Shown here one piece after another: positions 12,644 through 47,045 of a stretch of 64,000 nucleotides of DNA. The stretch covers positions 3,365-67,364 of the forward strand of contig CAYZGQ010000001.1 of the NCBI GenBank assembly GCA_964478135.1. The letters run 5' to 3'. Made by a program: the position numbers and the translations under genes. Numbering within the stretch: the first letter of the stretch is position 1; each line of letters opens with the position of its first letter. The notes beneath the pieces were generated by a model. The model did no database searches and was not told the origin of the DNA. It saw only the letters and a program-made list of their open reading frames with translations. The stretch is from an uncultured Candidatus Saccharibacteria bacterium. GTDB taxonomy: Bacteria; Patescibacteriota; UBA1384; GWA2-35-9; CAYZGQ01.

Positions 12644-13207
12644 ATGCCACGGAGGGGACTTAATTATCTTCTTTTTAGTTTAGTTGTTGTTTCGGCGATT
12701 TTGATGATCCTTTTTTGGCGCAGGAGTCCCAAACAGCCAGTTGACCGGCTGGCCCAGGAGCAGAAAGCGGCCGTTCTCTTTACCAGCGCCAAGGAGGCCC
12801 AAACATCGAGAGACTTTAAAACCGCGGTTGCCCGCTATCAGGAAGCGATCTCGTTCAACCCGAATGAGCCGGTTTATTTTGAGTCGCTCGGAGTCGCCCA
12901 GTATAACATTAAGGATTACCGGGGGGCGATTGCCAGTTTTGAGCAGGCGCTCAAATTGACGCCCGGGAGCGCCTTTTTATGGAACGGTTTGGCCAACGCC
13001 GCTCGCGACAGCGGCGATCGCCAGAGAGCCTTTGAGAGCTACCGCAAGGCGATCGAGCTTGACCCGGGTTTTTTGGTCGGCTACACCAACTTGGCTTACC
13101 TTTACCGAGACCAAGGCGCGGTTGACCGGGCTAAGGAGGTAATCGCCGAAGGTCTGGCCAAAAATCCCGACTCGGTTGAGTTGAAAGACATTTTAAAAAA
13201 CCTATGA
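12644..13207 (+). CDS. TPR-repeat protein with N-terminal membrane anchor
   Basis: At least four 34-aa TPR-like units (AVARYQEAISFNP..., AIASFEQALKLTP..., AFESYRKAIELDP...). The stop overlaps the start of the next gene (ATGA). Confidence 0.65.
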   Translation: MPRRGLNYLLFSLVVVSAILMILFWRRSPKQPVDRLAQEQKAAVLFTSAKEAQTSRDFKTAVARYQEAISFNPNEPVYFESLGVAQYNIKDYRGAIASFEQALKLTPGSAFLWNGLANAARDSGDRQRAFESYRKAIELDPGFLVGYTNLAYLYRDQGAVDRAKEVIAEGLAKNPDSVELKDILKNL

Positions 13208-27334: not shown

Positions 27335-27371
27335 GGTCAAACTAAGTCACAATTTTTGTGATATGTGATCT
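27335..27371 (+). promoter_or_regulatory. operator-like inverted repeat upstream of the 1816-aa gene
   Basis: gTCACAAtttTTGTGAtatgtgatc gives perfect 6-bp inverted arms with a 3-nt spacer. A further GTGAT copy follows. It lies between a TTGACg -35-like hexamer and the aaggagaaaggagg SD. Confidence 0.35.
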
Positions 27372-30400: not shown

Positions 30401-32896
30401 CAGACAAATACTCGATTGGGTCTCGGGACAAGTTCGCCACTTTTTCCGATTCATGTTGTTAGATCGGGCGGTGGCGGGACGTTGAATTTTGACACTTACG
30501 CCGGTTCTGGACTGGGCAACAGCGCCATTCAAGGTCGGCGGGCGGCCGGAACTTTGGCCAGCCCGACAGCCACTCTGTCGGATATGACTCTGTTCGATCT
30601 GCTTGGGTCTGGCTACGACGGTTCAGCTTTCACCGGACAGATCGCTTCGATACGCATGCAAGCCAATCAGAATTTTAGCCCGACCAGTCAGGGCACCAGG
30701 ATTGTCTTTTTGACCACGGCCAATGATTCGACGACCGCGACTGAACGGCTGCGGATCAAACACAATGGCGATGTGGCAATCGGCAACGGCTCGACCGATC
30801 AGATATTATTTGGTTCGACCGGCTCGGCGGTCTTCAACGAACAGGGCAATGATGCCGATTTTCGGGTCGAGGGCGACACCGACGCCAATCTATTGTTCAC
30901 CGACGCTTCGGCCGATGTCTTGGGTGTCGGCACCGCGACCTTCGAAGCCAACACCCGCAAGATGGAGGTGAGATACACCGATACCGCGACCTCCGGAGGC
31001 ACCTTTTCAACGATTAGATTGCTTTCGGACATCAATGCTCCTTCTAACTCCACGGCATCCCATTTTGGTCTAGGAACGACTTTAAGAACCGCGAGCGGCA
31101 ACGCTTCCAACTACACCGACTCCACGACAGGTATTAAGGCGATGAACTTTGTCGTCCAGCACCGAGGCACAGGCACGGTTACTAGAATGACAGGCTTGGG
31201 CGGCAATGTCACCAACAGCTCAAGCGGTACGATTACGACTGCCGAGAGCATCGTGGCTGGGGTTGACCTGACCTCAACCGGTCCGATTACTACTTGGAAC
31301 GCCCTGCGGGTCTTCGCGCCCTCTATCACTGGCTCTGGGGTGCTGACTAACGCTCGCGGGCTTTACATCAGTAACATCACAGGGGCCTCCACGCAGAATC
31401 TAGCTATCCTGACAGAAGGGGGCGGAGTAGTCTTTAATGAAAACGGCACGGACAGCGATTTCCGGGTCGAGGGCGACACCGATGCCAATCTATTGTTCAC
31501 CGACGCTTCGGCTGATCGGGTTGGTATAGGGACAAACACCCCTTCGCTCAAACTTCACGTGGTGGACAACTCTTCAACTTCGGCTATTTTCCAGCGCAAC
31601 AGCACTGCCACCGGTTCGAGTGTTGGCTCAACGGTTTTTTTGGATAATTTGGACACCACGACCAACAATGGAGCTCGTTTGATTTTTAGAACCAACGATA
31701 CTGGCGGCGCAACCAGGCAAGCGGCTGGAATAGGCTCGCTCGTAACCGCCCGGGGTGCTAGCAGTGTGACTGGCGATCTGGTATTCCTGACCAACAACAA
31801 CTCAACCGGCGTTTCCGAGGTTGCTCGGTTAACCGGAGCGGGCGCGCTTGGCATTGGTGAGTCGCCGGCGGCCAATATGAAGCTTGATGTCGCTGGCCGG
31901 GTTCAGATTAATCTGGCCGGAACCCAAACCTCGGTTGCCTTGTGCGGTAGTCACCCGGCTGGCGGCGGGGCCTCGGTTTCCGATGTCGAGATTGTTGACT
32001 GCACCGGCACGCCGGCGGCTGACTATGCCGAGATCTATCCGGTTTCAAACGATGTTGAATACACTGATTTAGTGGCTATCGGACCGGATTCGGTTAAAAC
32101 CACCGATCAAAACTCGATTCAAAGGCTAGTCAAAGCTACGATCGCCAATCAAGCCAACACTTTAGGAGTCGTTGTTGACAACTACGGCGATTTCTCCTCG
32201 GTCGGTCACAACATTAAAGGTTCTGATAATCCCAAACCGGTCGCGCTTTCAGGCCGGGTGAGAGTGAAAGTTTCCGGCCAGTCGGGCGCGATAGCGCCCG
32301 GCGATTATCTGACCGCCTCGTCCAAACCCGGTCGGGCGATGAAGGCGACCTCAAGCGCCAAGATAGTTGGAGTGGCTTTGGGATCATTTAGCGGCGACGA
32401 GGGGACGGTAATGATGTTTGTCAGCAATTTCTGGTATAATCCGTCTTCGGGCGAGAGTATTCAGGGTACCCAAACTGCATCCTACCAGGCGCTCGAAGTT
32501 GCCGGCCTTTTGCGAACGAATCTTTTGGAGGTTGCCGGGCCAGCCGAGTTCAAAGGTAGTTTAGTTGTCTGGGGTGAAACAACCTTTAAGGCACCGGTTG
32601 TGGTTCAAAAGACGCTGACTGCTAAAGAAAAGATCGTGTCCAAAGGTGACCTTGAGCTCAAGGGCAATCTTGTTCTAAACCCCGACATTAAAGGGTCAGC
32701 CTTGCCAGTGACTAAGGGCGCGACCAGCCTTGAGGTCGTGTTTAGCAAGCCCCAAGCTGACACAAGCTACTTGGCTTTCGTCACGCCATCCCAGCCGATC
32801 GGTTTTGGCGTTACCAAACAATCTGACAAAATGATCGTTACCTTTGAGGCCGAGGCGCCGGAAGGATTAATCCTGGATTGGCTGATAGTCAGATGA
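27446..32896 (+). CDS. giant (1816 aa) membrane protein: two N-terminal excisionase-type HTH modules, one TM helix, long S/T/G-rich repetitive extracytoplasmic region
   Basis: Two tandem roughly 45-aa units (LAQAGQLFGYSAGHMNYLARSGKIIALKLGGQWYTT and LAQAAKQYGYSAGHLNLLAREGKLEAVKLGRNWYTT) match the HTH_17/excisionase pattern. A TM helix follows (FKLGLITLIVSGLAFGL). There are near-identical internal DNA repeats. The start codon is TTG as given by the ORF track, with no ATG and no SD in frame upstream, so the start is uncertain. Confidence 0.7.
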   Translation: MIPLAQAGQLFGYSAGHMNYLARSGKIIALKLGGQWYTTRAAVSAYQAGQPQPENPTGFMSLAQAAKQYGYSAGHLNLLAREGKLEAVKLGRNWYTTERAIDQYRQGVREIELVPDSPDPALQISQPENINVKVRPVASYQGFGITETDDDAPGPTGGFRLKSVMVSRGFKLGLITLIVSGLAFGLGRLVQGWRTGELNGLGPSGIAAYLFGGELAQGDRLGSGFLGSITRERAQSDTPGVRPEASPSPDTVVNNTTVNNYNQTVNNDNRQVTNISTTKTAKDIVGELSDPQVSDDITINSSKAGSFSPSGNTTALTVKQSSASPSETPIVKIQNASGANLVTVDFEGNLGLAGGSRLEIGGQQIGIANLADGSSIASLSGSQTLTNKTLSAGVIYQGSAISPSYGGTGLTSAPSNGQLLIGNGSGYTLAALTAGTAINVTNGSGSITIANSGVTSLSAGTGIAVSGSSGAVTLTNSGVTALTGTTNQVSLSGSTGSITISTPQNIHTGASPTFSRLNLSEASNQLVLQSNSVTGSLTWTPVTSNKTITLPNLTGTAFLIDGGQTISSAVWNASAIGPSYGGTGQTTLAKGDILYGSATDIWSRLAVGSIGYVLQVSLDGVPEWATISSLSVGNADTLDSLDSADFLRATASDTFEGVNSRTLTIQSDLSSGARTVDLLTISQANDPTNNFTTGNLLTIAQLDTGSSADALELNQTGSGKAINIVSGELATAGNIVQTGATTLSTGTGAVSLGGDTTIATGKNLTLASGTGTFSQIFSNTTGTGANWNITNSGSSGTNTVGGIGLVLAGTANTTGSNVINAINFSNVPPATNNSYYALNVGTGFTDIVRYNGAQLISGSGVIQSAALSGNYTGVTGVGILSTGTWNADTIIFAKGGTGLTATPSNGQLLIGNGSGYTLAGLTGTTNQINVASGAGSITLSTPQNIHTAASPTFAGLTLSDLTPGSLVFAGAGGVISQDNAKFFWDQTNTRLGLGTSSPLFPIHVVRSGGGGTLNFDTYAGSGLGNSAIQGRRAAGTLASPTATLSDMTLFDLLGSGYDGSAFTGQIASIRMQANQNFSPTSQGTRIVFLTTANDSTTATERLRIKHNGDVAIGNGSTDQILFGSTGSAVFNEQGNDADFRVEGDTDANLLFTDASADVLGVGTATFEANTRKMEVRYTDTATSGGTFSTIRLLSDINAPSNSTASHFGLGTTLRTASGNASNYTDSTTGIKAMNFVVQHRGTGTVTRMTGLGGNVTNSSSGTITTAESIVAGVDLTSTGPITTWNALRVFAPSITGSGVLTNARGLYISNITGASTQNLAILTEGGGVVFNENGTDSDFRVEGDTDANLLFTDASADRVGIGTNTPSLKLHVVDNSSTSAIFQRNSTATGSSVGSTVFLDNLDTTTNNGARLIFRTNDTGGATRQAAGIGSLVTARGASSVTGDLVFLTNNNSTGVSEVARLTGAGALGIGESPAANMKLDVAGRVQINLAGTQTSVALCGSHPAGGGASVSDVEIVDCTGTPAADYAEIYPVSNDVEYTDLVAIGPDSVKTTDQNSIQRLVKATIANQANTLGVVVDNYGDFSSVGHNIKGSDNPKPVALSGRVRVKVSGQSGAIAPGDYLTASSKPGRAMKATSSAKIVGVALGSFSGDEGTVMMFVSNFWYNPSSGESIQGTQTASYQALEVAGLLRTNLLEVAGPAEFKGSLVVWGETTFKAPVVVQKTLTAKEKIVSKGDLELKGNLVLNPDIKGSALPVTKGATSLEVVFSKPQADTSYLAFVTPSQPIGFGVTKQSDKMIVTFEAEAPEGLILDWLIVR

Positions 32897-34597: not shown

Positions 34598-35275
34598 CTA
34601 GCTGGCTGGCGAGGGGCTTGGGCTAGCGGCTGATTGGCCAGTTTGACGGGCGAACACAATGTAACGTTTGACGAGCGTGCCCGGAGGCCAAGAGGTTTGG
34701 AGAGTTATGGTTTTGTCTTTCGGATCTTTGGGCGTTGGGTCTAGAACCGAGAAGTCGTCAGAGGCGACCACCTTCTTGCCAAAGACCTCGTATTGGTAGG
34801 CGACATTTTTGTAATAGACGATGAACCGATCGCCTTTGTCGAGTTTGTCGATACTTTTGAAGATTTCTTTAAGTTCTGGTTTACCCGGGAAGTTTTTAAA
34901 GTAGCTCGAGTGACCGAAGATGTACATATTTCCCAGTTGGTCCGGTTTCTGGCTACCTTTTAGATGTGCGACACCGAGCTGGGAGGTGATTTTTTGATAG
35001 ACCGGTTCGTTAGCCCCGTCAACATCCGCGATAATTGGAACCCGGATGCTGATTTTTTCGATCTCAAGACCAAATTCTTTGATCTCGACTGGTTCTGGCA
35101 GGGAACTTTGATTAAGCCCTGAAGGAGAGGCAGAGGGTTGAACGATTGATACGTTCAAGCCTGACTTTACCAAAGCAAGCGTTCCGGCAACAACCATAGC
35201 GCTTGCTAGTCCAATACCAAGAATAACTAGCTTTTTTTGAGTAGTCACTTGTGGCAAGACAGATTGTGGGTTCAC
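34598..35275 (-). CDS. sortase-fold protein (class E-like) with Ser at the catalytic Cys position
   Basis: N-terminal TM anchor. Catalytic His context (NMYIFGHSSYF). TLQTSWPPGTLVKRYIVFA aligns with the sortase TLxTC...R active-site strand, but it is encoded as acc-tct-tgg (Ser), which I verified by reverse-complementing 34650-34700. The GTG start overlaps the TGA stop of the upstream LPKTG gene. Confidence 0.65.
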   Translation of the reverse strand: MNPQSVLPQVTTQKKLVILGIGLASAMVVAGTLALVKSGLNVSIVQPSASPSGLNQSSLPEPVEIKEFGLEIEKISIRVPIIADVDGANEPVYQKITSQLGVAHLKGSQKPDQLGNMYIFGHSSYFKNFPGKPELKEIFKSIDKLDKGDRFIVYYKNVAYQYEVFGKKVVASDDFSVLDPTPKDPKDKTITLQTSWPPGTLVKRYIVFARQTGQSAASPSPSPAS

Positions 35276-38200
35276 GCGAGCCGGCGTCGAAGGGTTACCG
35301 CGACCGATCCAGCGGCAAGAGCGGCCAGTCCGATCAAGGCCAGTAGGTTGAGCGCGAGCGTGTTGGCCCCGGTTTTCGGCAGCTCAACAACCTGCGCCGA
35401 AACCTGATCGGTGTTAATTGACTCGTTGCCAGTTGTATCGAGGGAGCGCAGGGTGTAGTAGTATGTCCCTTTGGCGGTCAGGCTGTCATTATAACTCGTG
35501 TCTGCCTTGACGGTCGTCTTAATTTTATCGCCTAGCTTTCCAGATTCACTCGAGCGGTAAATGTTAATCTTGTCAAAGTCAGAGTCGGTTGGATTTTTCC
35601 AAGTTAAACTGATCTTACCAGTGCCGGCAGTCGCTTTGACTTCGCTTGGAGCGGCCGGCGGGGCGCTGTCAGCGTTGGCCGCCAGGCCAAAGACGGTTAA
35701 GTGGGAAACCAAACAACTAACTTCGTTTTTAGTGGTGTCAACGGTGCAGTTTTCCTTAGACAGTGAACCATCGGTCTCGTTGAATGAGACGATCTGGATA
35801 TCAGCTTCTTTGACCCCGGCCGGAATATCGGATTCTTTATAGGGGAAGGTGACGGTCAAGGGACTGTTGGGAGAAGTAATGTTAGAACCATTAGAGTCGA
35901 TCGCCGTGATATTATAAGCCTTTCCAAAGACAGAGGCACCTTCTTGGGCAGGCATTTCTGCTGTGGCGCCAACATTAAGCGTGACATTAGCGTCATCATT
36001 GTTTTTATCGAGTGCATCTGCGGGCACTTGGATGTTCATACCATCGCTTAAGGAGATTGCCGTAGCCGAACCCGAATTGCCAGTTCTTGAAGCGTCAGCT
36101 GGCAAAACGTTGCTTTGGGTAGTCAAACTAAAATCTTGGGTGAGATTGGTCGTTTGACCCTTGGTGTTAACCAGTTTTTCACCTGGTAGGATTATGACAT
36201 CTTTTTGGTTATCAGCATCTTTGGCGACATCAAGGTGCCAGACAGTATCTTTGGTGGCATTCATTGAGTATTTGCCATTGGAATCAGTCCGGACTTGGTT
36301 GACAGCGCCGTCGTCGGAATAGGCGCTGACAAGGGCATTGTTGACTGTTTGAGCGCTGGAATCATTAACTGTGCCTTCAAACTTAAAGTCGGCTTTGCGT
36401 AACTTAAAGTCAACCCCAGTTTTAGTTTCTTGATTGCCCACGCTAACGATTTGTTCAGCCGGTGGTAGCCAGCCATTTTTATTCAGCACTTCGGGCGCCA
36501 TAAAAACTCGGATGTTTTGGGTTTCACTGGAAGTGACATCGATTGAGTAGCTACCATTCGTATCAGTTTGGCCACTGAATTCGAAGAAGTCAGGCACAGG
36601 ACCTTTAGTTGCGTTGCGGTTATCGTCGTCTAGGCCGTTGTCCACTTTAACTTTCGCTCCCACGACCGCGTTACCATCGGGATCGGTGACTTTACCTTGG
36701 ATTTTGCTGTCAAGGGCTTTGAGTGTTACTTTAACCTCTGCCGTTTGGCCGGCCGTCAGGCTGACTTTGTCTTTGGGGGGTACCATGGCAAAGCCTGAAC
36801 CTGGTTCGATAAAGACACCGACACGGTAGGGGCTTTGCCCGGCAACAACACTAATGTTGTTAACAGAGGCGGCTCCGCCATGACCGGCGAAATCACCCAT
36901 GACATTGACACCTTTGTCAGAAATAGCAAAGGCGTGGGCAAAGACGCCGGAAATGGCACTGCCGTCAGATTTCACTAACTTAACGGCAATGTTAGCATCG
37001 GTAGGAACCAGCTTGATATCAATTGATTTGACCTCGTTTTTAGCAAGTTTGACCTTGCTAAATCCTTCGGGCATAAAGCCGTTCATTGGCATCATTGGGT
37101 TTAATGTGTACTCATTGTCACCGGGAACTTTGATATTAGCGCTCCCACGCTGGATTGGTTTACCCAGAAAGCCGATCGTATCACTATTAACTTCCATAAA
37201 GCCAAAGCTGTCAGAGACGACAGCTTTGGTGTCAGAACGGGTAATCCTGGCCTTGATGGTGGCATCGGCGTTAAGTGCCTCGAAGGTAGCTGTTCCACCG
37301 GCTTCAACGAACTGTGGCCCGCCTTTGATCACCTTGGAACTGCCAGCCTGTTGCTCTTGATCCTTTTGACCACCTTCAGGTCCAAAGTTCTCTGACATCA
37401 CCATCACGCCGTATTTGCCCGTGCCGACCACAGGGATCGTGCCGGTTGCTTCGGTCCCAGTCAGCTTAAGAATAGTAAAGCCGAATTCACCGCCTCCACC
37501 GACGCCCATCTTAAAGACATTGGCATTCATGTCGGCGGAGCCGTTTTTAACCACGACTTTGATTGCCTTTTCTTTTTTTACCAGAGTCAGGATACCGAGG
37601 TTTTTGGTTTCGCCGGCTTTAACCGCGATTGGCTCAATGACAGGCGCTGCGAACTGGGCGGCGTTGGGATTTTGGAAGTTCGGTGGCGAAAAGATGTCGA
37701 AATTATAGCTTTTTCCTCCGGCTACTTTCACGTTGAAGTTGACCGAGGAGGCACCCGGGGTAATCTGGAGGGGCGCGCCAAAGCCAAAGTCATTACCGGC
37801 CCGGATACCAAGACCGGTGCCTTGAGCTAGGGCGGATCCATCAGGCGTGGTAATTGTACCGGTAACCGCGGCGTCGACTTTTACGAAGTTATTAATGTTA
37901 ACGGTGACTGTTTCCACTGAATCGTCGTCTTTAAAGCTAGCCTGAATTGGCGGACCGCTCATCACGAAACTGCCGGCCCCATCGCTCGGGGCATGGATAT
38001 TCCATCTACCACCCGAGAGTTTGACGCTGTAGTTGCCGCTCCCGTCGGTTTTAGTTTGGGCAAAACCACCCGCTTCTTTAAAGAAGTTTAAGCTAGTAGT
38101 GATTACAGCTTCACCGGTCGCGGTGGTTGCTTTACCGGTTAAAGTTTTGGTCGCAGATTTAAATTTAATGGTTTTGCCAGTCAATTGGCTGCCGGTGTAG

Positions 38201-38598
38201 GTACCAAGATCTGTGAACGGGGGAGAGATTAATCCAGTGGTTGAGCCGTCAAACGGTGGGAAAAGATCGGCCACGAGCTTGTCGCCGCTTTGGGTGTTAT
38301 TAGCGAAGTCTTGGATAGTTGCCAGGCCGTTAGCGTCTGAATTGCTAAATAAGGAATATTTAAAATCAATCGGATGGACGTTAACTCCGGCGTTTTTGAC
38401 CGGCGCGCCATCGGCATCCTGGATGGTAATTACAATAATGGTTTTAGCCGTGGGTGGTGGTTGGGCGAGTGAGGCGCCAGAGTAGGCGAGGACTAGGCCC
38501 GCGATAGTGAAGACGCTTGTAAGGCCGCGCCAGTACAGGCGGAAAGCACCCGCCTGGGTCGTTCCTGATTGTAACATTATCCCTCCTTTTGAGCTCAA
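35272..38598 (-). CDS. LPKTG-anchored giant surface protein (1108 aa) with Ig-like/carboxypeptidase-regulatory-like domains and a C-terminal FN3
   Basis: N-terminal signal/TM. A C-terminal sorting signal (LPKTG, hydrophobic stretch, then RRRLA). FN3 signature (TYYYTLRSLDTTGNES). Strong SD (aaaaggaggg) before the ATG. Confidence 0.8.
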   Translation of the reverse strand: MSSKGGIMLQSGTTQAGAFRLYWRGLTSVFTIAGLVLAYSGASLAQPPPTAKTIIVITIQDADGAPVKNAGVNVHPIDFKYSLFSNSDANGLATIQDFANNTQSGDKLVADLFPPFDGSTTGLISPPFTDLGTYTGSQLTGKTIKFKSATKTLTGKATTATGEAVITTSLNFFKEAGGFAQTKTDGSGNYSVKLSGGRWNIHAPSDGAGSFVMSGPPIQASFKDDDSVETVTVNINNFVKVDAAVTGTITTPDGSALAQGTGLGIRAGNDFGFGAPLQITPGASSVNFNVKVAGGKSYNFDIFSPPNFQNPNAAQFAAPVIEPIAVKAGETKNLGILTLVKKEKAIKVVVKNGSADMNANVFKMGVGGGGEFGFTILKLTGTEATGTIPVVGTGKYGVMVMSENFGPEGGQKDQEQQAGSSKVIKGGPQFVEAGGTATFEALNADATIKARITRSDTKAVVSDSFGFMEVNSDTIGFLGKPIQRGSANIKVPGDNEYTLNPMMPMNGFMPEGFSKVKLAKNEVKSIDIKLVPTDANIAVKLVKSDGSAISGVFAHAFAISDKGVNVMGDFAGHGGAASVNNISVVAGQSPYRVGVFIEPGSGFAMVPPKDKVSLTAGQTAEVKVTLKALDSKIQGKVTDPDGNAVVGAKVKVDNGLDDDNRNATKGPVPDFFEFSGQTDTNGSYSIDVTSSETQNIRVFMAPEVLNKNGWLPPAEQIVSVGNQETKTGVDFKLRKADFKFEGTVNDSSAQTVNNALVSAYSDDGAVNQVRTDSNGKYSMNATKDTVWHLDVAKDADNQKDVIILPGEKLVNTKGQTTNLTQDFSLTTQSNVLPADASRTGNSGSATAISLSDGMNIQVPADALDKNNDDANVTLNVGATAEMPAQEGASVFGKAYNITAIDSNGSNITSPNSPLTVTFPYKESDIPAGVKEADIQIVSFNETDGSLSKENCTVDTTKNEVSCLVSHLTVFGLAANADSAPPAAPSEVKATAGTGKISLTWKNPTDSDFDKINIYRSSESGKLGDKIKTTVKADTSYNDSLTAKGTYYYTLRSLDTTGNESINTDQVSAQVVELPKTGANTLALNLLALIGLAALAAGSVAVTLRRRLA

Positions 38599-38678: not shown

Positions 38679-39587
38679 TTAATTCTTTTTGGATTGTTGA
38701 GTTATTGATTCAAAGATCGGTTCAAGTTGACCATCTAAAATAGAGTTTATTCTGGAAAAACTTTTACCCGATCGATGGTCGGTCACCCTGTCCTGGGGGA
38801 AGTTGTAAGTTCTGATTTTTTCCGATCGATCACCCGAACCAACCATTTGTTTGCGAACTTTATCGGTCTTGGCGTGGATGCTGGCATCCTCGATTTTATT
38901 GAGCCGGGCGGCTAAAACCGCCAGTGCGCTTTGTCTGTTGGCCGTTTGAGAACGTTCGTCCTGTGAGGTCGCGACTAGGCCGGTTGGCCGGTGAACGATT
39001 CGGACCGCTGTCTCAACCTTATTAACATTTTGACCGCCGTGACCGCCGGCGCGAAAAAATGATATTTCAAGCTCGCTTGGTTTTAATTTAGCCGAGTCTT
39101 GTTTGACAACCGGCAAAACCGCGACCGTGGCGGCGGATGTGTGAATTCGGCCTCTCTTTTCCGTTACTGGTGTTCGCTGGACCCGGTGAACACCAGCCTC
39201 GGTTTTGAGGGAGTGATAGGGACTTGGGTTAGTTTCAAGTTGAGCCGATCCTTGGTTTTGTTTAACTTCTACTATGGCCGATTTAATCCCGCCTTGACTT
39301 GACGTTTGAATCTCAATCGGCCGCCAAATCCACGATCGGCGATGGCAAAAGTGCCGATACATTCTTAAAAGATCGGCCGCCCAAATTTCAGCCTCACCCC
39401 CGCCCACGCCGGCCCTGATTTCAAGAAAACAGTCATTGACTCGTTCTTCCTTTTGGCCCTTAAACTGACCGGTTTGAGCCTCGAGGCGTTTAATGTCCTC
39501 GCGAGCCATCTGCCCGATCGCAGGATCAGGATTTGAAGCGAGCGCCCGCGCCTGATTGAGCTGTTTGACAATTGTTTGATAGTCCAT
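38679..39587 (-). CDS. prfA: peptide chain release factor 1
   Basis: GGQ motif ([16 protein letters not shown]). Domain-2 tripeptide PVT within [26 protein letters not shown], which is the RF1 type (PxT) rather than RF2 (SPF). No frameshift site. Confidence 0.85.
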
Positions 39588-40068: not shown

Positions 40069-40959
40069 ATGGCTACCAAGATTATTAAAGTAAAAGCGGT
40101 CAAGTCAGCCCAAACAACTACCGGTCGCCAGAAGACCGAAAGCCATCTTATGGGTAAGACGAGCAAGGCCAAGGAGCCTTCAAAGATAGCCCTGCCAAGT
40201 GTTGAGAAACTATTTGAACTGGGCGCCCATTTTGGTCATCAGCGCTACCGATCTCATCCTGATTTTCAGGAATACGTCTGGCAAGTGCGCGATGGAGTTA
40301 TGATTTTGGATTTAAGCCAAACGCTTGACCGGCTCAAACTGGCGCTTGATTTTTTGGACAAGCAGAGTCGACTTGGCAAAAAAATACTAATTGTTGGGAC
40401 CAAGAGAATCAGTCGTGATTTGGTCGAGCGCTTGGGTAAAGAAACAAACACAGCTTGGGTCTCAAACCGGTGGTTGTCTGGTACTTTGACTAACTTTGCC
40501 ACTCTGATTGGACAAATCAAAAAACTCAATCGTTTAAGCGAGTTGATCGGCTCGAAAGAGTTTGAGCAGATGACTAAAAAGGAACGTTTAATCTGGGAGC
40601 GAAAACTGGCCAGGCTCCACGACAACTTTGACGGTTTGAGCAGTCTTGAGGCAAGACCGGATATATTAGTGGTGATTGACGGACACGCTCACCGGATTAG
40701 CACAGATGAAGCCAAACGTTTGGGGATCACCACGGTCGTGTTCGCCGACAGCGACACTGATCCTAGCCTGTGCGATTACTTGGTCCCGATTAACGATGAT
40801 TCACGATCAACGATCGAGCTGGTGATTAATTTAATCGGTCAAGCGATCGGCGGTGCCAGAACATCTGATCAGACAACAAAGCCGGACAGTCTAGTAAAAA
40901 GTGACAGAGCCAGAGCGCGCGGTTTAAGTAAAATCAATAATGTCCAAGACGTTAGTTGA
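40069..40959 (+). CDS. rpsB: ribosomal protein uS2
   Basis: LFELGAHFGHQ, VILDL-type and conserved S2 core. The N-terminal roughly 27-aa extension is uncertain, and an alternative start near 40150 is possible. Confidence 0.85.
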   Translation: MATKIIKVKAVKSAQTTTGRQKTESHLMGKTSKAKEPSKIALPSVEKLFELGAHFGHQRYRSHPDFQEYVWQVRDGVMILDLSQTLDRLKLALDFLDKQSRLGKKILIVGTKRISRDLVERLGKETNTAWVSNRWLSGTLTNFATLIGQIKKLNRLSELIGSKEFEQMTKKERLIWERKLARLHDNFDGLSSLEARPDILVVIDGHAHRISTDEAKRLGITTVVFADSDTDPSLCDYLVPINDDSRSTIELVINLIGQAIGGARTSDQTTKPDSLVKSDRARARGLSKINNVQDVS

Positions 40960-41404
40960 GACGATCAAAAAGCTCCGGGATGAAACAGGGGCCGGACTAA
41001 TGGATGTTAAAAAGGCGCTCACTCAAGCTGGTTCGGATCTCAACAAGGCGAGAGTGATTCTGCGTCAGACAAGCGCTGTCAAAGCGGTTCAAAAGAGTGA
41101 ACGCTCGACCCAAGCCGGCTTGATCGAATCATACGTCCACGCCGGCAAAATCGGGGTGCTGGTTGAGCTGGGTTGTCAGACCGATTTTGTGGCGCGCACG
41201 AGTGAGTTCAAGGCGCTAGCCCATGAACTAGCCCTGCAAGTGGCCTCAATGGCCCCTAAAAACGTGACCGAGCTGTTTAGCCAAAACTACATCAAAGACG
41301 AGTCAACCACGATCAAGCAGATTGTGAATAACGCGATCGCGAAACTGGGCGAAAATATTCAAATTAAGCGTTTTGTAAGGTTTGAACTTGGTCAGGGCGA
41401 CTGA
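40940..41404 (+). CDS. tsf: elongation factor Ts (short form)
   Basis: N-terminal UBA-like LRxxTGAGxMDCKKAL signature (IKKLRDETGAGLMDVKKAL). Follows rpsB as in the conserved rpsB-tsf pair. Confidence 0.85.
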   Translation: MSKTLVETIKKLRDETGAGLMDVKKALTQAGSDLNKARVILRQTSAVKAVQKSERSTQAGLIESYVHAGKIGVLVELGCQTDFVARTSEFKALAHELALQVASMAPKNVTELFSQNYIKDESTTIKQIVNNAIAKLGENIQIKRFVRFELGQGD

Positions 41405-41575: not shown

Positions 41576-44500
41576 GTGCTGGGTGTTTTAGCCCTGCTCG
41601 GTCTGGTTTTAGTCAGTCCTTCGGCCGTCCAGGCCGGTGCAATCACCGGTTTGTCGGTTACAGTCAGTGACACGAGCGTCCAAGGGACGGCTGACTGGAC
41701 AATTGCCCTGACTCCAGAACAGTCAGTCCCAGCCAAGTCAAATGGCGGTCGGATTCACATGTGTGTCTATGGACCAGGCTCGATGAGTTTTCGGGATGGT
41801 TCTGTCGCGCTCGATTCGTCGGCTAGCACGAGCGGTTTGTCAATCTATGAACGGTTGGGAAATTGTATCACCCTTCAGTCAAACAGCGAGATCGCAGGAG
41901 GAACGGTTATCACTGCCAAACTGACAGGGGTTAGAAACCCAGACAAAGCCGGACGGTATGTTGGTCACATCTACAGCTCGACCTACGGCACCGCCCGAGA
42001 CGGCACCTCTCGCTGGGGCGGGCTCTACAATAGTTCTTTTACCATCGGCGATTTGACCAAGAACACTATTTCAGGTACGGTCACAGATGCCAATGGCGCA
42101 CCGGTCCGGTTTGCCTCCGTCTCTGTTTGGGGTAGCGGCGGCGGCGCTTGGGGCTACAGCTACACCGATCAAAATGGCCAGTACGCGATCGGCAGTCTAA
42201 CCACTGGCTCCTACAACTTTAGCGTCTACGGTCCCTACAACGAAGACGGTATCTTTTATTTTGCGCCTGATGTTTCGAGTATTTCAATTTCCGATACTTC
42301 GGCCACGACCAAAAACGCCAGCTTTTTAGCGACTCCCAAAACATTGCAAATTAAGGTTGAGGACGGCTCTGGTACAGCCATAACCGATGCCTATGTCTCG
42401 ATCTGGTCCAGAAACGGGAATGGTTGGGCTCAAACCAAAAACAACACCAACGGAGTCTACAAGATTAATGTTCCGAAAAACCGGACTTTTGGGTTTAGCG
42501 TTTATCCCCAAAATTGGCCTTCAACCTGGCAGTCATGCGGCAGTTATAACGAAGAAGTTACGACCGCCAACACCGATACGGCCGAGACTGTCAGTAAGAC
42601 GTTTAAGGTTTCCTCGCTCAACGCCACGGTCAAAGGTAAGATTGAGCGGTCTGACGATAGCACGCCCAAGCGCTGGTCAGTGAGCGTGAGTTTCCAGTCA
42701 AGCGGAGGTTGCTGGGCTTCAGCCGACTTTCCCGACGACACTGGTAATTTCAGCGCTAAAGTTGTCAGTGGCGAGACTATCACCGCGACTGGTTGGGTTT
42801 CGAGTGATCTCAACGAATCATTCCCAACGGTCAGTAACTTTTCGGTCCAAGCCAACCAAGAGCACAACCTGGGCGTAATCAAACTTAAAAAGCGTGATAA
42901 AAAGCTCGCTGTGACGGTTGTGGACAAAAATGGCGATCCGGTTAACAAGGCCAACGTCTACGCTTGGAAAACTGGCGGTTCGTATGAATATGCCAACGGC
43001 ACAACTGGCTCCGATGGCAATGCGGAACTCTTTTTGAGTCCAGGCAGCTGGAATGTTTCGGCCGGGCCAGAGTACCGCTGGAATGGCTCAAACAACGAAT
43101 ATGACTATGTCTCCAACTGGAAGTCTCAATTGATCAGCTTTTCCGAGTCAGACACGACTAAAACGATCAAGTTTATCTTCCAAAAGGTTACCTCAACGAT
43201 TAATGTCACCGTGACCGATGAGGCTGGGAGCGTCCTTAACCTATCGGGTAGTTTGTCGGCCAACGATGGTTCGCAAGAATGGTCAAATATCTGGTCCCAG
43301 CTCAATAGTGGCAAAGGCAAGCTTAGGGTTCCCCGAGGGACCTGGAGTGTTAACGCCAGTATTTGGGATGAGACCTATAGCTCACCAAATCCGGTTGACA
43401 TCACGATCGGTGATAATGAGACCAAAGAGATCAAGCCCAAGGCCTTGATCAATGATTCGACCATTTCCGGCAAAATCTACACAGAAGATGAAGATGGTAA
43501 CCGGACCCTGCTTAAAAACACTTGGCTTAGCATCTATGCTAACAAAAAAAATTCCTACTCTTCTTGGCGGTCAGCCTCGGTCAACCAAGAAGAAGGAACC
43601 TATTCGATCAAAGTTTCCTCGGGTGACTGGAGGCTCGGTTACTGGTTTTATAACAACAATTATATGTCAGGATACGGGAACGAAGTTGATGTATCGGTTA
43701 AATCAGGTGAAACTAAGACCCAAGATATTATTCTGCGCAAAGCTAACTACACCATCTCGGTCAAGGCGCTCGATCCAGACGGCAAGGCGCTGATGGGGGC
43801 TTGGATCACGGCTGACACGCGCAATCCTAAAGAGCGGACCGAAGCTGGTACTTGGTACTCAACCGGTACCTCAACCAATAATCAGGGAGAGGGGACGATT
43901 CAAGTGTCAGCCAACACTTACTGGATTAGTGGTTCGATGTGGTCAGGTTATATCAGTCCAGAGCGCCAAGAGGTTAAGGTCAATAAAGACAATCCAACTG
44001 CCAGTGTCACTCTCCAGTTCGGTCGGTCTGATGCGACTATATCTGGCACAGTCAAGCTCGATGACAAAGGGACTAAGTCGTTTGTTAATGCGGTCAGCGA
44101 GAAAGGCCGCTATGCCGAGACTAATTCAAGTAACGAAGGCCATTACATCCTCAACGTCTCGAAAGACGACACTTGGGTCGTCAAGGCAGTTAAAAAGGAT
44201 GGCGCAACTTTGTATCGATCAGACAAGAATCGAGTTGATCTCACTGGTAAGACCACGGGCATAGTCAATCTCGATTTGGTAAAAGAAACAATCAAGTTGC
44301 CGGAGGGGACGACCAGCACCTTTAATGCCAGCCAGTCAACTACCGTTAAGATTAAAAATGGCAATGTTGACGAAGTGATCATCACTGTTCCGACTGGCAC
44401 CCTGTCGAGCGATAATGAACAGATAACTGTAACGGCCGATGTGACCGAAGAGGTCACCGACACTTCAACTAGCGAGCCTGTTTTCGACTACGGTTATGAC

Positions 44501-45193
44501 ATCAACGCCAACGGTAGCCAATCCGGCACAATCAGCCAGTTGAAGGATAACGTGACCGTGACCGTAAACTATTCGGCCAACGAGCAGGCGATCCAAGATG
44601 AGGGAACAGAAGAGGACCTAGTGGTAGCCCGTTTCAACAACGAGAAAGGTGAATGGGAGCAACTCCAAGGTTGCGCTACAAACAAGGATGACAACACTAT
44701 TACCTGTCAAAATAATCACTTCACCAAGTTTGCGGTTGTCGCTTCAACCGACATCACCCCACCTTCTGCTCCAGGTAGCCAGAAGGCGATTGCTTCGAAC
44801 GCTAAGATTTCTTTAAGCTGGAGCAAGCCAAGCCAGGCCGACTTTGCCGGGGTTAACATCTATCGGTCAACCGAGAGTGGCAAGCTGGGTGATAAGATTT
44901 ACGGCAAAAATACCTCCACCAGTCACGACGATACGGTTCTGATCAACGACACGGTCTATTACTATACCCTCAAGTCAGTTGACAAAGCCGGTAACGAGTC
45001 AACCGCATCCGATCAGCTCAAAGCCAAGCCTTCAGCAACCTCGCCGGAGTCATCGGACGGTTCAACCACTGCCACGCTCTCAATTCTGCCCAAGACTGGT
45101 CAACCAGCCTCGCCTTTGAATTGGTTGTTGGCGATTCTGACAGTGATCAGCCTGGCCGGGGTCAGGGCATCGAGGATTGTCCGGATTAAGTGA
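41576..45193 (+). CDS. LPKTG-anchored giant surface protein (1205 aa), paralog of 35272-38598
   Basis: N-terminal signal peptide. Repeated carboxypeptidase-regulatory-like beta-sandwich motifs (SGTVTDANGAPV). C-terminal FN3 (TVYYYTLKSVDKAGNES). LPKTG, a TM segment and a basic tail (RIVRIK). The GTG start is taken from the ORF track and the exact start is uncertain. Confidence 0.8.
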   Translation: MLGVLALLGLVLVSPSAVQAGAITGLSVTVSDTSVQGTADWTIALTPEQSVPAKSNGGRIHMCVYGPGSMSFRDGSVALDSSASTSGLSIYERLGNCITLQSNSEIAGGTVITAKLTGVRNPDKAGRYVGHIYSSTYGTARDGTSRWGGLYNSSFTIGDLTKNTISGTVTDANGAPVRFASVSVWGSGGGAWGYSYTDQNGQYAIGSLTTGSYNFSVYGPYNEDGIFYFAPDVSSISISDTSATTKNASFLATPKTLQIKVEDGSGTAITDAYVSIWSRNGNGWAQTKNNTNGVYKINVPKNRTFGFSVYPQNWPSTWQSCGSYNEEVTTANTDTAETVSKTFKVSSLNATVKGKIERSDDSTPKRWSVSVSFQSSGGCWASADFPDDTGNFSAKVVSGETITATGWVSSDLNESFPTVSNFSVQANQEHNLGVIKLKKRDKKLAVTVVDKNGDPVNKANVYAWKTGGSYEYANGTTGSDGNAELFLSPGSWNVSAGPEYRWNGSNNEYDYVSNWKSQLISFSESDTTKTIKFIFQKVTSTINVTVTDEAGSVLNLSGSLSANDGSQEWSNIWSQLNSGKGKLRVPRGTWSVNASIWDETYSSPNPVDITIGDNETKEIKPKALINDSTISGKIYTEDEDGNRTLLKNTWLSIYANKKNSYSSWRSASVNQEEGTYSIKVSSGDWRLGYWFYNNNYMSGYGNEVDVSVKSGETKTQDIILRKANYTISVKALDPDGKALMGAWITADTRNPKERTEAGTWYSTGTSTNNQGEGTIQVSANTYWISGSMWSGYISPERQEVKVNKDNPTASVTLQFGRSDATISGTVKLDDKGTKSFVNAVSEKGRYAETNSSNEGHYILNVSKDDTWVVKAVKKDGATLYRSDKNRVDLTGKTTGIVNLDLVKETIKLPEGTTSTFNASQSTTVKIKNGNVDEVIITVPTGTLSSDNEQITVTADVTEEVTDTSTSEPVFDYGYDINANGSQSGTISQLKDNVTVTVNYSANEQAIQDEGTEEDLVVARFNNEKGEWEQLQGCATNKDDNTITCQNNHFTKFAVVASTDITPPSAPGSQKAIASNAKISLSWSKPSQADFAGVNIYRSTESGKLGDKIYGKNTSTSHDDTVLINDTVYYYTLKSVDKAGNESTASDQLKAKPSATSPESSDGSTTATLSILPKTGQPASPLNWLLAILTVISLAGVRASRIVRIK

Positions 45194-45903
45194 AATATGC
45201 TTTAACGGCACATCTTTTATCCCGGGCGGGCAAAATAGATGAGCCTGATTTGATGATACTCATAACGGAAGCGGGATAATGGTGACCGTAAGCGATCGAT
45301 CAATCGCCGACCACTTACAGGCTGGCGTAAAGACATTGATTTAACCGACAAATCTCAAAAAAGCGGTTGGTTTTTTTTGTTTTGCTCGCGCTTTGTGAAT
45401 CTTAGACCAGGCAGGATCGAGGGTGAGGTATGGGCCCGAATAATTTAGGAGTCTGCTGGAAGGATCAGTCAATGTCTGATGAGCCCAGGCTGATCAAGGC
45501 CGGTTTTACCACCTGCTATTGACAATGGGCCTTAAAAAGTGTCTGGCTCCAGGTACCTTGGACTGGGTAGGGCCCGGCAGGCCCGACATTTGTCAAGACA
45601 AACAATCGCCACGATCAGCCTCGGATCTTGCGGATCTAGAATGCCTCGCGTCTAGCAGCCTGATATAAAACACCCCGAGAGACTTGACTAGTCAAGACCG
45701 TCAGATGACACTGGAGACCGTCTGGCCAAAGGCCGACCGGATGAGCGTCCAATAAGCGTGATATCGCAATAACTAAAAAATAGGTCAATTCAGTCTGGTG
45801 GTACCAGGCCGCGGATCAGGCTCTGACTGGTTCAAGATAAAAAATAAACGGGATGGGGCAATAATCAGCCATTGGGGTCGCCCAAAAGGCGATTTTTGAT
45901 CAA

Positions 45904-46446
45904 ATGATGGACCCAGTGGTAAGGGTGCTTGAAAAGAGTTATTCAGCCAGGCACAATTGTGTTATGATGACTGTCCTGGCGGCCGGGGTGTTTGATGTGA
46001 TACATCCTGGTCACATTTACTTTCTCGAGCAATCCAAGAAGCTGGGTGACCGCTTAGTGGTCGTTGTGACGTCTGACGAGACGGCCGAGACCCAAAAGAG
46101 ACACCCTTTTTTTAATGTTAAGCACCGGTTGTCTATCGTCCAATCACTTCGATCGGTTGATCTGGCGGTTATTGGGCAGGCAGGCGAGACCCTTAAAAGT
46201 GTGATTGATATTAAGCCAGACGTGATCGCGATCGGCCACGATCAATTCATTCAACCAATCGGTAGCAAAAGTTTAACAACTGGCATCGAGCCGGGCCGGA
46301 CAAGCGTTCAGCCCCAAGACCACGGGCTAGCCCAACTGGGCCGCGATTTGGCAAAATTGGGTTGGCGAGGTAAAATTGTCCGTATAGACAAAATGCCTGG
46401 GATTAGAGTTTCATCGAGTCGAATTAAGAAGTTACTTAGACGCTGA
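45904..46446 (+). CDS. HxGH-motif nucleotidyltransferase (cytidylyl/adenylyltransferase-like Rossmann fold)
   Basis: AAGVFDVIHPGHIYFLEQSKKLGDRLVVVV matches the (T/H)xGH nucleotidyltransferase signature of TagD, CoaD and FMN adenylyltransferase relatives. The start may be the internal Met at 45964. Confidence 0.55.
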   Translation: MMDPVVRVLEKSYSARHNCVMMTVLAAGVFDVIHPGHIYFLEQSKKLGDRLVVVVTSDETAETQKRHPFFNVKHRLSIVQSLRSVDLAVIGQAGETLKSVIDIKPDVIAIGHDQFIQPIGSKSLTTGIEPGRTSVQPQDHGLAQLGRDLAKLGWRGKIVRIDKMPGIRVSSSRIKKLLRR

Positions 46447-46487
46447 CGTTAACTCGTTTTTTCTATTAGCTAGTTTCCACCAAAACA

Positions 46488-47045
46488 ATGCTTGATCAAA
46501 TCATCAAACAAACTCGAGACAAAATGGAACAGGTCCTAGCCCAGATGAGCCAGGATTTTAGCCAGTTGCGCACCGGCAAGGCCTCGGCCGTCTTAGTCGA
46601 GTCGATTATTGTTGACCAGTACGGGGCCAAACTGCCGATTAAGCAACTGGCCACAATTACCGTTCCAGATGTCAATTTAATCGTGATCACGCCTTGGGAT
46701 AAGGGGTCTTTGGTTCAGATCGAGGCGGCGATTGATCAGTCAAACCTTGGCCTCAACTCGGTTAATGACGGATCTTCTATCCGTTTGAACTTGCCGCCGA
46801 TGTCAGCCGAGCGCCGAGCTCAAATAGCTAGGCTGGTCCTGACAAGAGCCGAAGAGGCCCGAGTGGCCCTTAGAGAACTCCGTCAATCAGCCTGGTCCCA
46901 GGTTCAAAAAAATGAAAAGTTGGGTCAGTTAACCCAAGACGATCGTTACCGAGGCGAAGAGATGCTTAATAAGTTGATTGCCGAGTTTAACGACGAGGTT
47001 AAAAAGAGTGCTCAATCAAAGGAGCAAGAAATTAGTTCGGTCTAA
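46488..47045 (+). CDS. frr: ribosome recycling factor
   Basis: 185 aa. Conserved RRF core (LRTGKAS, ITVPD, LNLPPMSAERR). Confidence 0.9.
   Translation: MLDQIIKQTRDKMEQVLAQMSQDFSQLRTGKASAVLVESIIVDQYGAKLPIKQLATITVPDVNLIVITPWDKGSLVQIEAAIDQSNLGLNSVNDGSSIRLNLPPMSAERRAQIARLVLTRAEEARVALRELRQSAWSQVQKNEKLGQLTQDDRYRGEEMLNKLIAEFNDEVKKSAQSKEQEISSV

Follow-up and report, generated by a model that had tools for sequence, protein, structure and literature searches.

A possible sortase gene relic in a 710-bp gene-free gap of a Saccharibacteria genome

Results

The locus

The DNA studied here is a 64-kb stretch, called the window below, of contig CAYZGQ010000001.1 (positions 3,365 to 67,364) from an uncultured Candidatus Saccharibacteria bacterium. 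The genome is of the Patescibacteria/Candidate Phyla Radiation (CPR) type, with tightly packed genes that lie mostly on the plus strand, and our subject is the gap at 45194-45903, which we examine as the possible remains of a sortase gene. Upstream of the gap the gene order is prfA (38679-39587, minus strand), rpmE, rpsB (40069-40959), a short tsf (40940-41404) and a gene for a 1205-aa protein (41576-45193). Downstream come a RibL-like cytidylyltransferase (CT) gene, frr, rseP and proS, then tpi, pgk and others. The gap, the gene before it and a related pair of genes on the other strand are as follows.

41576-45193, plus strand: gene for a 1205-aa surface protein with CarboxypepD_reg repeats (Pfam), ending in LPKTG, a transmembrane (TM) or hydrophobic helix and a basic tail.
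45194-45963, plus strand: gene-free gap in its probable full extent, between the stop codon of the 1205-aa gene and the probable CT start ATG at 45964; proposed to hold a sortase relic, a terminator and a promoter.
34598-38598, minus strand: intact paralogous cassette, in which the gene for a 1108-aa LPKTG protein (35272-38598) is followed by a sortase gene (34598-35275) with a GTGA start/stop overlap.

A first-pass annotation of the window had described 45194-45903 as a 710-bp gene-free stretch in an otherwise tightly packed genome, and on both counts it was right. Neither strand of 45194-45903 has an open reading frame (ORF) of at least 60 aa, so the uninterrupted ORF of a sortase (~185-225 aa) is absent, and L035, an independently made assembly of this genome with 2 mismatches in 20.5 kb, has no gene called in the gap. 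The gap is the largest true spacer in the window, the remaining ones measuring at most 272 bp. When a codon log-odds model was trained on the long genes of the window, values were negative in all six frames over ~45200-45880 and positive only inside the flanking genes. The GC content of the gap is 0.489, compared with 0.50 for coding DNA and 0.275-0.47 for the other spacers. Pfam found no match in the six frames of the gap with stops masked, blastn against phages and plasmids gave none, and an exact 24-mer from the gap had 0 matches in the Joint Genome Institute (JGI) metagenomes. Nor did the window contain a second segment resembling the gap when a diversity-generating retroelement template or other internal repeat was looked for, and such a template was ruled out on that ground.

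The gap is real and probably somewhat longer than first described. The longest CT ORF starts at 45904, the gene-caller version of the protein (P0001) has 160 aa, and the CT homologues align only from residue 19-24 onward. It follows from the shorter version and the homologue start that CT probably begins at ATG 45964, not at 45904, so that the non-coding stretch likely extends to 45963 and comprises ~770 bp. CT itself (45904-46446, plus strand) is RibL/FAD-synthase-like and is embedded in the rpsB-tsf-frr block. Among its relatives in the species-representative genome set, archaea (DPANN, Methanofastidiosa, Thermoplasmatota) predominate overwhelmingly, and a few matches are from CPR.

The 1205-aa gene and the gap form an insertion

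Relatives of the locus were found via the CT protein: L039 (GCA_034680565.1), L040 and one JGI contig. All three share the order prfA (minus strand)-rpmE-rpsB-tsf-CT-pyrH-frr-rseP-proS, with a tsf-CT spacer of 5-33 bp. Since tsf abuts CT in the relatives, the 1205-aa gene together with the gap is a lineage-specific insertion of ~4.4 kb between these two genes. The first-pass annotation had proposed aligning the syntenic intergenic region of relatives for covariation; in these syntenic relatives the region is wholly absent. Other CPR loci with CT are likewise tightly packed, and a comparable gap was not found among them. In a set of 5.8 billion proteins, leaving aside the same genome, identity to the nearest relatives is at most 56% in ribosome recycling factor (RRF) and at most 43% in CT. 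The JGI metagenomes yielded no orthologue of the 1205-aa protein.

The window differs from relatives in one further respect. The UMP kinase gene pyrH stands between CT and frr in L038, L039 and L040; in the window 41 bp separate CT and frr (46446-46488), and pyrH was found nowhere in the 64 kb. The gap was considered as a resting place for a pyrH pseudogene, and the idea was dropped: tblastn of the PyrH proteins of L038, L039 and L040 against gap and window gave noise, and no AA_kinase domain was seen in six frames. A pseudogene of any other gene located near homologues was rejected in the same manner, as tblastn of all stop-to-stop frames of at least 50 aa from 37 loci against the gap gave noise at no more than 22 bits.

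A sortase gene is expected at the position of the gap

The C-terminus of the 1205-aa protein (LPKTG, hydrophobic helix, basic tail) is a sortase sorting signal. The protein is 25% identical over ~1100 residues to the 1108-aa protein of the minus-strand cassette, whose sortase (34598-35275) is recognised by Pfam (PF04203, E=1.7e-21), and 25-27% identical to paralogues each of which is then followed by a sortase. In L041, L042 and L043, a CarboxypepD_reg/LPxTG protein of 1100-1311 aa is followed by a sortase of 203-215 aa whose gene overlaps the stop codon of its neighbour. Counting the minus-strand copy of the window, these sortases measure 203-225 aa. The cassettes of L041 and L042 are orthologous to the minus-strand cassette of the window, and that of L041 adjoins prfA-rpmE-rpsB. 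Within this surface-protein family the 1205-aa protein represents a fourth paralogue lineage, and we propose that it is the substrate of a cassette with a decayed sortase.

Positional homology for such a sortase is provided by the paralogous loci, the window minus strand and L041-L043, all of which carry the intact gene. Moreover, an intact same-strand sortase gene stands one gene upstream of frr in locus L036 (55% RRF identity), at the place that corresponds to the gap. By the cassette rule and the position in L036, the 710-bp gap lies exactly where a sortase gene of ~600-680 bp would be expected. The distance from 45190 to ~45780 is ~590 nt, compared with 610-680 nt for a sortase gene, and a GTG at 45190 overlaps the upstream stop codon, matching the start/stop layout of the intact cassette.

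Two observations on the cassettes stand apart from the question of the gap. The paralogous LPKTG genes (1108 aa, minus strand; 1205 aa, plus strand) flank prfA-rpmE-rpsB-tsf divergently, and relatives have at most one cassette at either side. The intact sortase at 34598-35275 reads TLQTSWPP, with Ser where the catalytic Cys of TLxTC is expected; P0094 and P0096, which are among its nearest homologues, share the Ser, as do P0131 and P0133, and Cys is found in 36 of 41 aligned homologues. This CPR clade may, to judge by these residues, have a subgroup of sortases that are inactive or use Ser as nucleophile.

Sortase-like sequence in the gap

Four segments of the gap resemble parts of a sortase, and they are listed in the order in which they occur.

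45315-45338, plus strand: possible relic LQAGVKTL, aligning with sortase 'lekGVAhl'; a weak high-scoring segment pair (HSP), insignificant alone.
45344-45415, plus strand: possible His-motif relic TDKSQKSGWFFLFCSRFVNLRPGR, aligning with GSQKPDQLGNMYIFGHSSYFKNFPGK; the catalytic His is lost, and the HSP scores 13.1 bits.
45672-45728, plus strand: putative sortase active-site relic TPRDLTSQDRQMTLETVWP, aligning with TPKDPKDKTITLQTSWP of the window sortase; family consensus ..TLmTCWP, with Val at the nucleophile position.
45748-45780, plus strand: possible C-terminal Arg-strand relic SNKRDIAITKK, aligning with 'lakRlvvfakq' by way of a +1 frameshift and a stop.

The active-site block is the segment that carries statistical weight. 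With the window sortase as query, tblastn found 47% identity over 19 aa, with E=0.009 against the gap and E=0.52 against the whole window. Hidden Markov models (HMMs) were built from 41 sortase homologues (broad) and from the 8 closest (subfamily), and a frameshift- and stop-tolerant profile-to-DNA aligner was written. Scores for the block were 20.6 bits (broad HMM) and 20.9 bits (subfamily HMM). Such scores were reached by none of 1500 dinucleotide shuffles (Gumbel p ~0.002) and by none of 296 and none of 444 genomic control windows, both strands included, the control maxima being 19.7 and 20.2. The minus strand of the gap scored at the null mean, and the best sortase-profile match in the 64 kb outside the real sortase is the plus strand of the gap. 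Counted from the GTG at 45190, the block is 167 codons downstream, the expected place in a sortase of ~190-200 aa, and it includes the subclade-specific context TP[KR]D..D[KR]x[IM]TL[QE]T.WP. In sum, the firm part of the sequence support is one motif of 13-19 codons, with p ~0.002-0.01 per region. The motif weighs more than this value because the cassette architecture had already told which query, strand and position to expect.

The other segments would extend the similarity in both directions. A frameshift-aware alignment with milder gap costs, running on into SNKRDIAITKK, reached 25.2 bits, which none of 400 shuffles did. In the His-motif region, KSQKSGWFFLFC-SRFVNLRPGR (45344-45415) stands opposite GSQKPDQLGNMYIFGHSSYFKNFPGK. 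The HSPs for GVAhl, the His motif and the C-terminal Arg form a chain in the correct order with a score of 42.9, again unmatched in 400 shuffles (HSP thresholds of at least 12, offsets of at most 150 nt). The N-terminal pieces are offset by ~130-140 nt; collinearity is restored on the assumption that the 147-nt hairpin segment 45481-45627, delimited independently by a repeat search, is an insertion. An alignment extended over the unedited gap with lax penalties was abandoned as over-fitted and not significant.

Repeats and palindromes

Two repeat structures in the gap, to which no strand is assigned, bear on its interpretation.

45474-45635: imperfect hairpin of ~160 nt, with outer arms 45481-45500 and 45608-45627 and inner arms TTGACAATGGGCC and GGCCCGACATTTGTCAA.
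45683-45696: perfect 14-bp palindrome CTTGACTAGTCAAG, formed by two TTGACT -35-like hexamers set back to back, within the proposed active-site relic.

The individual repeats named in the first-pass annotation all exist, some of them with slightly corrected coordinates. The palindrome is present as described, and so is the GACCGTC direct repeat, with copies at 45696 and 45716. The imperfect inverted pair is there with its coordinates shifted to 45519-45531 (TTGACAATGGGCC) and 45580-45596 (GGCCCGACATTTGTCAA), and the hairpin near 45797, CTGGTGGTACCAG, is better placed at 45795-45807. The description of the region as palindrome-rich did not hold up, since the counts of palindromes, inverted repeats and TTGAC all fall within shuffle or window background. 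Perfect palindromes of at least 14 bp number 8 in the window, as against ~4.2 in shuffles, and the other seven lie inside genes. The gap has 4 perfect inverted repeats (arm at least 8, loop at most 200); shuffles have 1.5 ± 1.2, with 8% reaching 4, and other 710-bp windows have 2.2 ± 1.6, with 20% reaching 4. The sequence TTGAC occurs 290 times across the window, compared with ~125 expected, a 2.3-fold over-representation, and the density of six copies in 350 bp of the gap is equalled elsewhere in the window. TTGAC is over-represented everywhere because TTGACN is a -35 box that the genome really uses.

The larger hairpin, 45474-45635, folds at -60.6 kcal/mol (z -2.1), with 6 of 200 shuffles equally stable and boundaries that were picked post hoc. 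No second copy of it was found in the window, and it may be an insertion into the relic, or chance. Several shorter words also recur. The 8-mer AGCCTGAT has three copies in the gap (45242, plus; 45658, plus; 45816, minus), as against ~0.02 expected from the rest of the window, and related words, GATCAGCC(T), lie at 45145, 45488 (minus) and 45613. A perfect 12-nt inverted pair, TGATCAGCCTGG / CCAGGCTGATCA, joins the end of the surface-protein gene (45144-45155) with 45485-45496. By k-mer count CAGGC/AGCCTG is mildly enriched in the gap. The 33-bp tsf-CT spacer of L040 (L040 3888-3920) contains CACTAGTCAAC, and it has the 9-mer ACTAGTCAA in common with the 14-bp palindrome at 45683-45696. The chance of this is ~0.15, and the sharing is probably coincidence.

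RNA-gene searches

A structured non-coding RNA (ncRNA) had been one of the three suggestions of the first-pass annotation, which proposed an Infernal/Rfam scan. The covariance models of Rfam 15, which include RNase P, SRP, 6S, riboswitches, ribozymes and introns, were applied at gathering score to the whole 64 kb and at E<=10 to 44900-46200 and to sub-windows of 231-251 nt. At gathering score there were 0 matches in the 64 kb, and at E<=10 there were 0 on 44900-46200. The two sub-windows, for which the filters are least strict, gave chance matches only (6.8-15.4 bits), to microRNA, small nucleolar RNA and enterobacterial small RNA (sRNA) models. ARAGORN found 0 tRNA or transfer-messenger RNA (tmRNA) genes in the window, and it is an observation in its own right that the whole 64 kb is without tRNA, tmRNA or Rfam family at gathering score. 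Folding was weak as well. The whole gap has z -1.5 on the plus and -2.0 on the minus strand, most 120-nt windows in it have z ~0, and 45716-45899, a hand-picked piece with post hoc boundaries, has z -2.1. With Rfam and ARAGORN empty and folding z-scores weak, the structured-RNA suggestion is not supported.

The noted resemblance to P4 of RNase P RNA is to be found as AAAGTGTCTGGCTCCA at 45536-45551, with neither a partner strand nor covariance-model support. RNase P was rejected since no complementary P4 3' strand (CCAGAC...) was seen by eye on the plus strand of the gap. A hammerhead at 45475 (CUGAUGAG) was rejected too, having no GAAA, no stem III and no model match.

The 3' end of the gap

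The 3' end of the gap, up to ATG 45964, holds a putative terminator and a putative promoter.

45874-45899, plus strand: terminator-like hairpin GGGGUCGCC-CAAAA-GGCGAUUUU, then UGA; our own reading supported by RNAfold (-9.7 kcal/mol), and not listed by the consensus scan.
45929-45957, plus strand: sigma-70-like promoter TTGAAA-17-CACAAT, 9/12 in the scan, ending 6 nt before ATG 45964.

Many genes of the window share this -10-to-ATG geometry, and CACAAT recurs at 27358. Within the gap the counts of promoter-like and terminator-like elements equal the shuffle expectation. A near-threshold promoter, TTGACT-17-GACACT at 45684-45712, has 8/12 matches by our own reading, the scan cut-off being 9/12. 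The suggestion of a regulatory hub with multiple TTGACA boxes is not supported, TTGAC being common throughout the genome and a single box of the gap (45684) having a -10, itself weak, at the right spacing.

Most genes of the window lack a Shine-Dalgarno sequence and have a TAnnnT -10 element whose distance to the start is only ~4-9 nt and which is often preceded, at 17 nt, by TTGACN (e.g., 2288, 5480, 12644, 27358, 33448, 45964, 61370). The pattern suggests that leaderless mRNAs are widespread here. A minority of genes (e.g., 25890, 32950, 49558, 52018, 52541) have GGAGG 3-6 nt upstream. The window, from an organism with a small genome, also contains giant ORFs of 2085 aa (13204-19461, plus strand) and 1816 aa (27446-32896, plus strand).

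Discussion

The gap is non-coding and lineage-specific, relatives have the cassette architecture, and the gap has motif-level similarity to sortase. The reading that we prefer, with a probability of about 0.5, is that the gap holds a sortase pseudogene in an advanced state of decay and, after it, a terminator-like hairpin and a leaderless promoter for the downstream gene. Large LPxTG-anchored surface-protein genes of this lineage come in cassettes with an overlapping sortase gene behind them, and this genome would have two such cassettes, flanking prfA-rpmE-rpsB-tsf, with the minus-strand one still intact. The plus-strand cassette would have inserted between tsf and CT, and, as the two substrates do not differ in their LPKTG signal, its sortase would have become redundant. 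The gene would then have collected stops, frameshifts and probably an insertion of ~150 nt, leaving only the active-site TLxTCWP block recognisable. At present the former sortase DNA probably no longer acts as a gene. Transcripts of the surface-protein gene would run on through it as a long 3' tail and stop at the hairpin and T-run at 45874-45899, plausibly the terminator of the surface-protein/ex-sortase transcription unit. The leaderless-type promoter at 45929-45957 would drive CT-frr-rseP-proS from ATG 45964, and the one sortase still left would process both LPKTG proteins. That the gap as a whole is homologous to a sortase, that this sortase became redundant and that terminator and promoter act as such are inferences. 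A functional sortase is not what we propose. The catalytic triad is not intact, as the block reads TLETVWP with Val, FLFC-SRF is without His, and the Arg is reached only after a frameshift (SNKRDIAI). With no ORF, no Pfam match, a Val nucleophile and no His, the sequence is filed as a probable pseudogene.

A number of findings weigh against a sortase relic. Only ~20-35 codons are recognisably sortase-like, and the Pfam Sortase model, even at E<=10, sees neither the fragment nor the six-frame translations. In HMMER's Forward-score statistics the estimates are modest: the broad HMM gave E=0.011-0.018 per frame, the subfamily HMM 0.0035. Set among 912 control frames, that of the gap comes 2nd when scored with the subfamily HMM; under the broad HMM it comes ~8th, and ~5 control loci score as high. 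The extended alignment with lax gap costs is equalled by 6 of 444 overlapping genomic windows (three loci), and a pairwise BLOSUM test of it gave p 0.05-0.08. Collinearity of the N-terminal pieces needs the ~130-140-nt offsets or an ad hoc excision of 45481-45627, and the chain fails at a 90-nt limit; the His-motif HSP, at 13.1 bits, is insignificant alone. There is no residual codon bias or stop-codon depletion in any frame of the gap. A GTGA overlap arises by chance in ~1 of 4 cases and is weak evidence. Finally, the collections searched held no relative above 56% RRF identity, and an intact orthologue of this copy was not found.

None of the rival explanations has positive evidence beyond chance. 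The one that we take most seriously, while considering it unlikely, is that the gap is a plain lineage-specific spacer, brought in with the surface-protein gene or accumulated after it, which serves as 3' untranslated region, terminator and promoter and in which the sortase motif is coincidence. Synteny shows the insertion, no frame has a coding signal, terminator-like and promoter-like elements do occupy the 3' end, and a motif significance of ~0.002-0.01 per region, with several control loci similar under HMMER or lax scoring, leaves room for accident. A spacer of 700 bp with coding-like GC nevertheless stands out where the others are of at most 272 bp and AT-richer, and accident would also have had to put the top sortase match of the window on the predicted strand and at the predicted position, behind a substrate gene, where three other paralogue lineages carry a sortase. 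A remnant of a mobile element, the other suggestion of the first-pass annotation, was half right, in that the region does look like a remnant. The evidence points to the decayed sortase of an inserted cassette, and no transposase, integrase, repeat family, phage or plasmid similarity was found; Pfam in six frames, the search for a second copy in the window and the phage and plasmid comparisons were all negative.

One or more novel lineage-specific ncRNAs, either the ~160-nt rod at 45474-45635 or an sRNA of ~180 nt running from the 45684-45712 promoter to the 45874-45899 hairpin and T-run, seem to us improbable. A coding- or RNA-like GC content fits an RNA, as do the two sub-regions with z ~-2.1, the somewhat better local folding of the plus strand than of the minus strand, and the near-threshold promoter and terminator-like hairpin that bracket ~180 nt. 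Yet 6-7 of 200 shuffles are as stable as those sub-regions, whose boundaries are post hoc, the sliding-window z is mostly ~0, and the promoter, at 8/12 only, is below the 9/12 cut-off. Rfam had no family at gathering score and chance matches at E<=10, ARAGORN was negative, and no homologous sequence turned up in the window, phages, plasmids or JGI metagenomes. Nor is it a conserved housekeeping RNA, the region being entirely missing from the syntenic relatives. A broader version, with a slightly slimmer chance, takes the gap or its GC-rich core (45400-45900) as a structured RNA specific to a once-sampled Patescibacteria clade, whether a 6S-like ~160-nt rod or a terminated ~180-nt sRNA, acquired with the surface-protein gene and possibly regulating it, the sortase-like motif being coincidental. 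We think it very unlikely that the gap is a regulatory hub, with the 14-bp palindrome and TTGAC inverted repeats as operators or -35 boxes for the flanking operons. TTGACN is indeed a -35 hexamer in genuine use, the palindrome is two such hexamers (TTGACT) back to back, and AGCCTGAT occurs three times; against this, palindrome and TTGAC counts are within chance or background, the promoter scan gave the shuffle expectation, the only convincing promoter (45929-45957) sits at the very 3' end, there is no regulator gene next to the gap, and relatives run the operon with a 5-33-bp spacer. A small-protein gene is more doubtful again. ORFs of 30 aa (45430-45522), 49 aa (45519-45668) and 50 aa (45636-45788, minus strand) exist, and the 30-aa ORF has GAGGG 6 nt upstream, a Shine-Dalgarno-like spacing used by some genes here, but codon log-odds are negative everywhere, Pfam is silent, the ORFs are neither hydrophobic nor otherwise protein-like, and no gene is called in L035. 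To a divergent housekeeping RNA (RNase P RNA, tmRNA, signal recognition particle RNA or 6S RNA) we give practically no credence: AAAGTGTCTGGCTCCA (45536-45551) loosely resembles the P4 5' strand, but no covariance model matched even at E<=10 on short sub-windows, ARAGORN found no tmRNA, the P4 3' strand (CCAGAC...) is missing from the plus strand, and syntenic relatives do not have the region.

A long, apparently palindrome-rich spacer in a compact genome invites an ncRNA reading; here the repeats are at chance level, and context, that is, synteny and the cassette rule, gives a simpler answer. If the sortase-relic reading is true, it documents gene decay without deletion in a CPR/Patescibacteria genome, one sortase is left for two LPKTG surface proteins, and the 1205-aa gene plus relic is a cassette inserted into the conserved rpsB-tsf-CT-pyrH-frr block. 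For annotation, the CT start would probably move from 45904 to 45964, and the gap would be marked as a possible pseudogene rather than left blank. To our knowledge, such relics have rarely been described in CPR/Patescibacteria. Degraded gene remnants in reduced genomes are reportedly the subject of work by Andersson and Andersson in 2001.

Of the known systems with which the gap may be compared, RNA genes are the most distant. Like type A RNase P RNA (RF00010), it has a 16-nt stretch resembling the P4 5' strand; unlike it, it has no P4 3' strand, other conserved regions or model match at the thresholds tried. Like 6S RNA and other rod-shaped sRNAs (RF00013), 45474-45635 can fold into a ~160-nt rod in which a large internal loop joins an outer and a terminal stem, but it has no covariance-model match, a z of only -2.1, no defined promoter and no counterpart in syntenic relatives. 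The sortase-substrate cassettes of Gram-positive bacteria (PF04203, PF00746) are closer. In common with them, a surface-protein gene with LPKTG, TM segment and basic tail is followed at its stop codon by a same-strand sortase-like sequence, and intact examples are present in the window and in L041-L043. In contrast to them, the copy in the gap is not an ORF, has Val at the nucleophile position, has lost the His motif and is unrecognised by Pfam. Heavily degraded pseudogene remnants in long spacers of reduced genomes are described for Rickettsia and Mycobacterium leprae in two reports (PMC2374718, PMC522871). The gap differs from those remnants in that its homology is limited to ~20-35 codons with p ~0.002-0.01, no series of intermediates is available from sister genomes, as no close relative has been sequenced. 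It resembles them in being a long spacer of coding-like composition, with an intact gene at the position in relatives or paralogous loci, and in that only short, frame-shifted, stop-interrupted patches of similarity are left. The relic in the gap is probably a new instance of this known phenomenon, ordinary gene decay.

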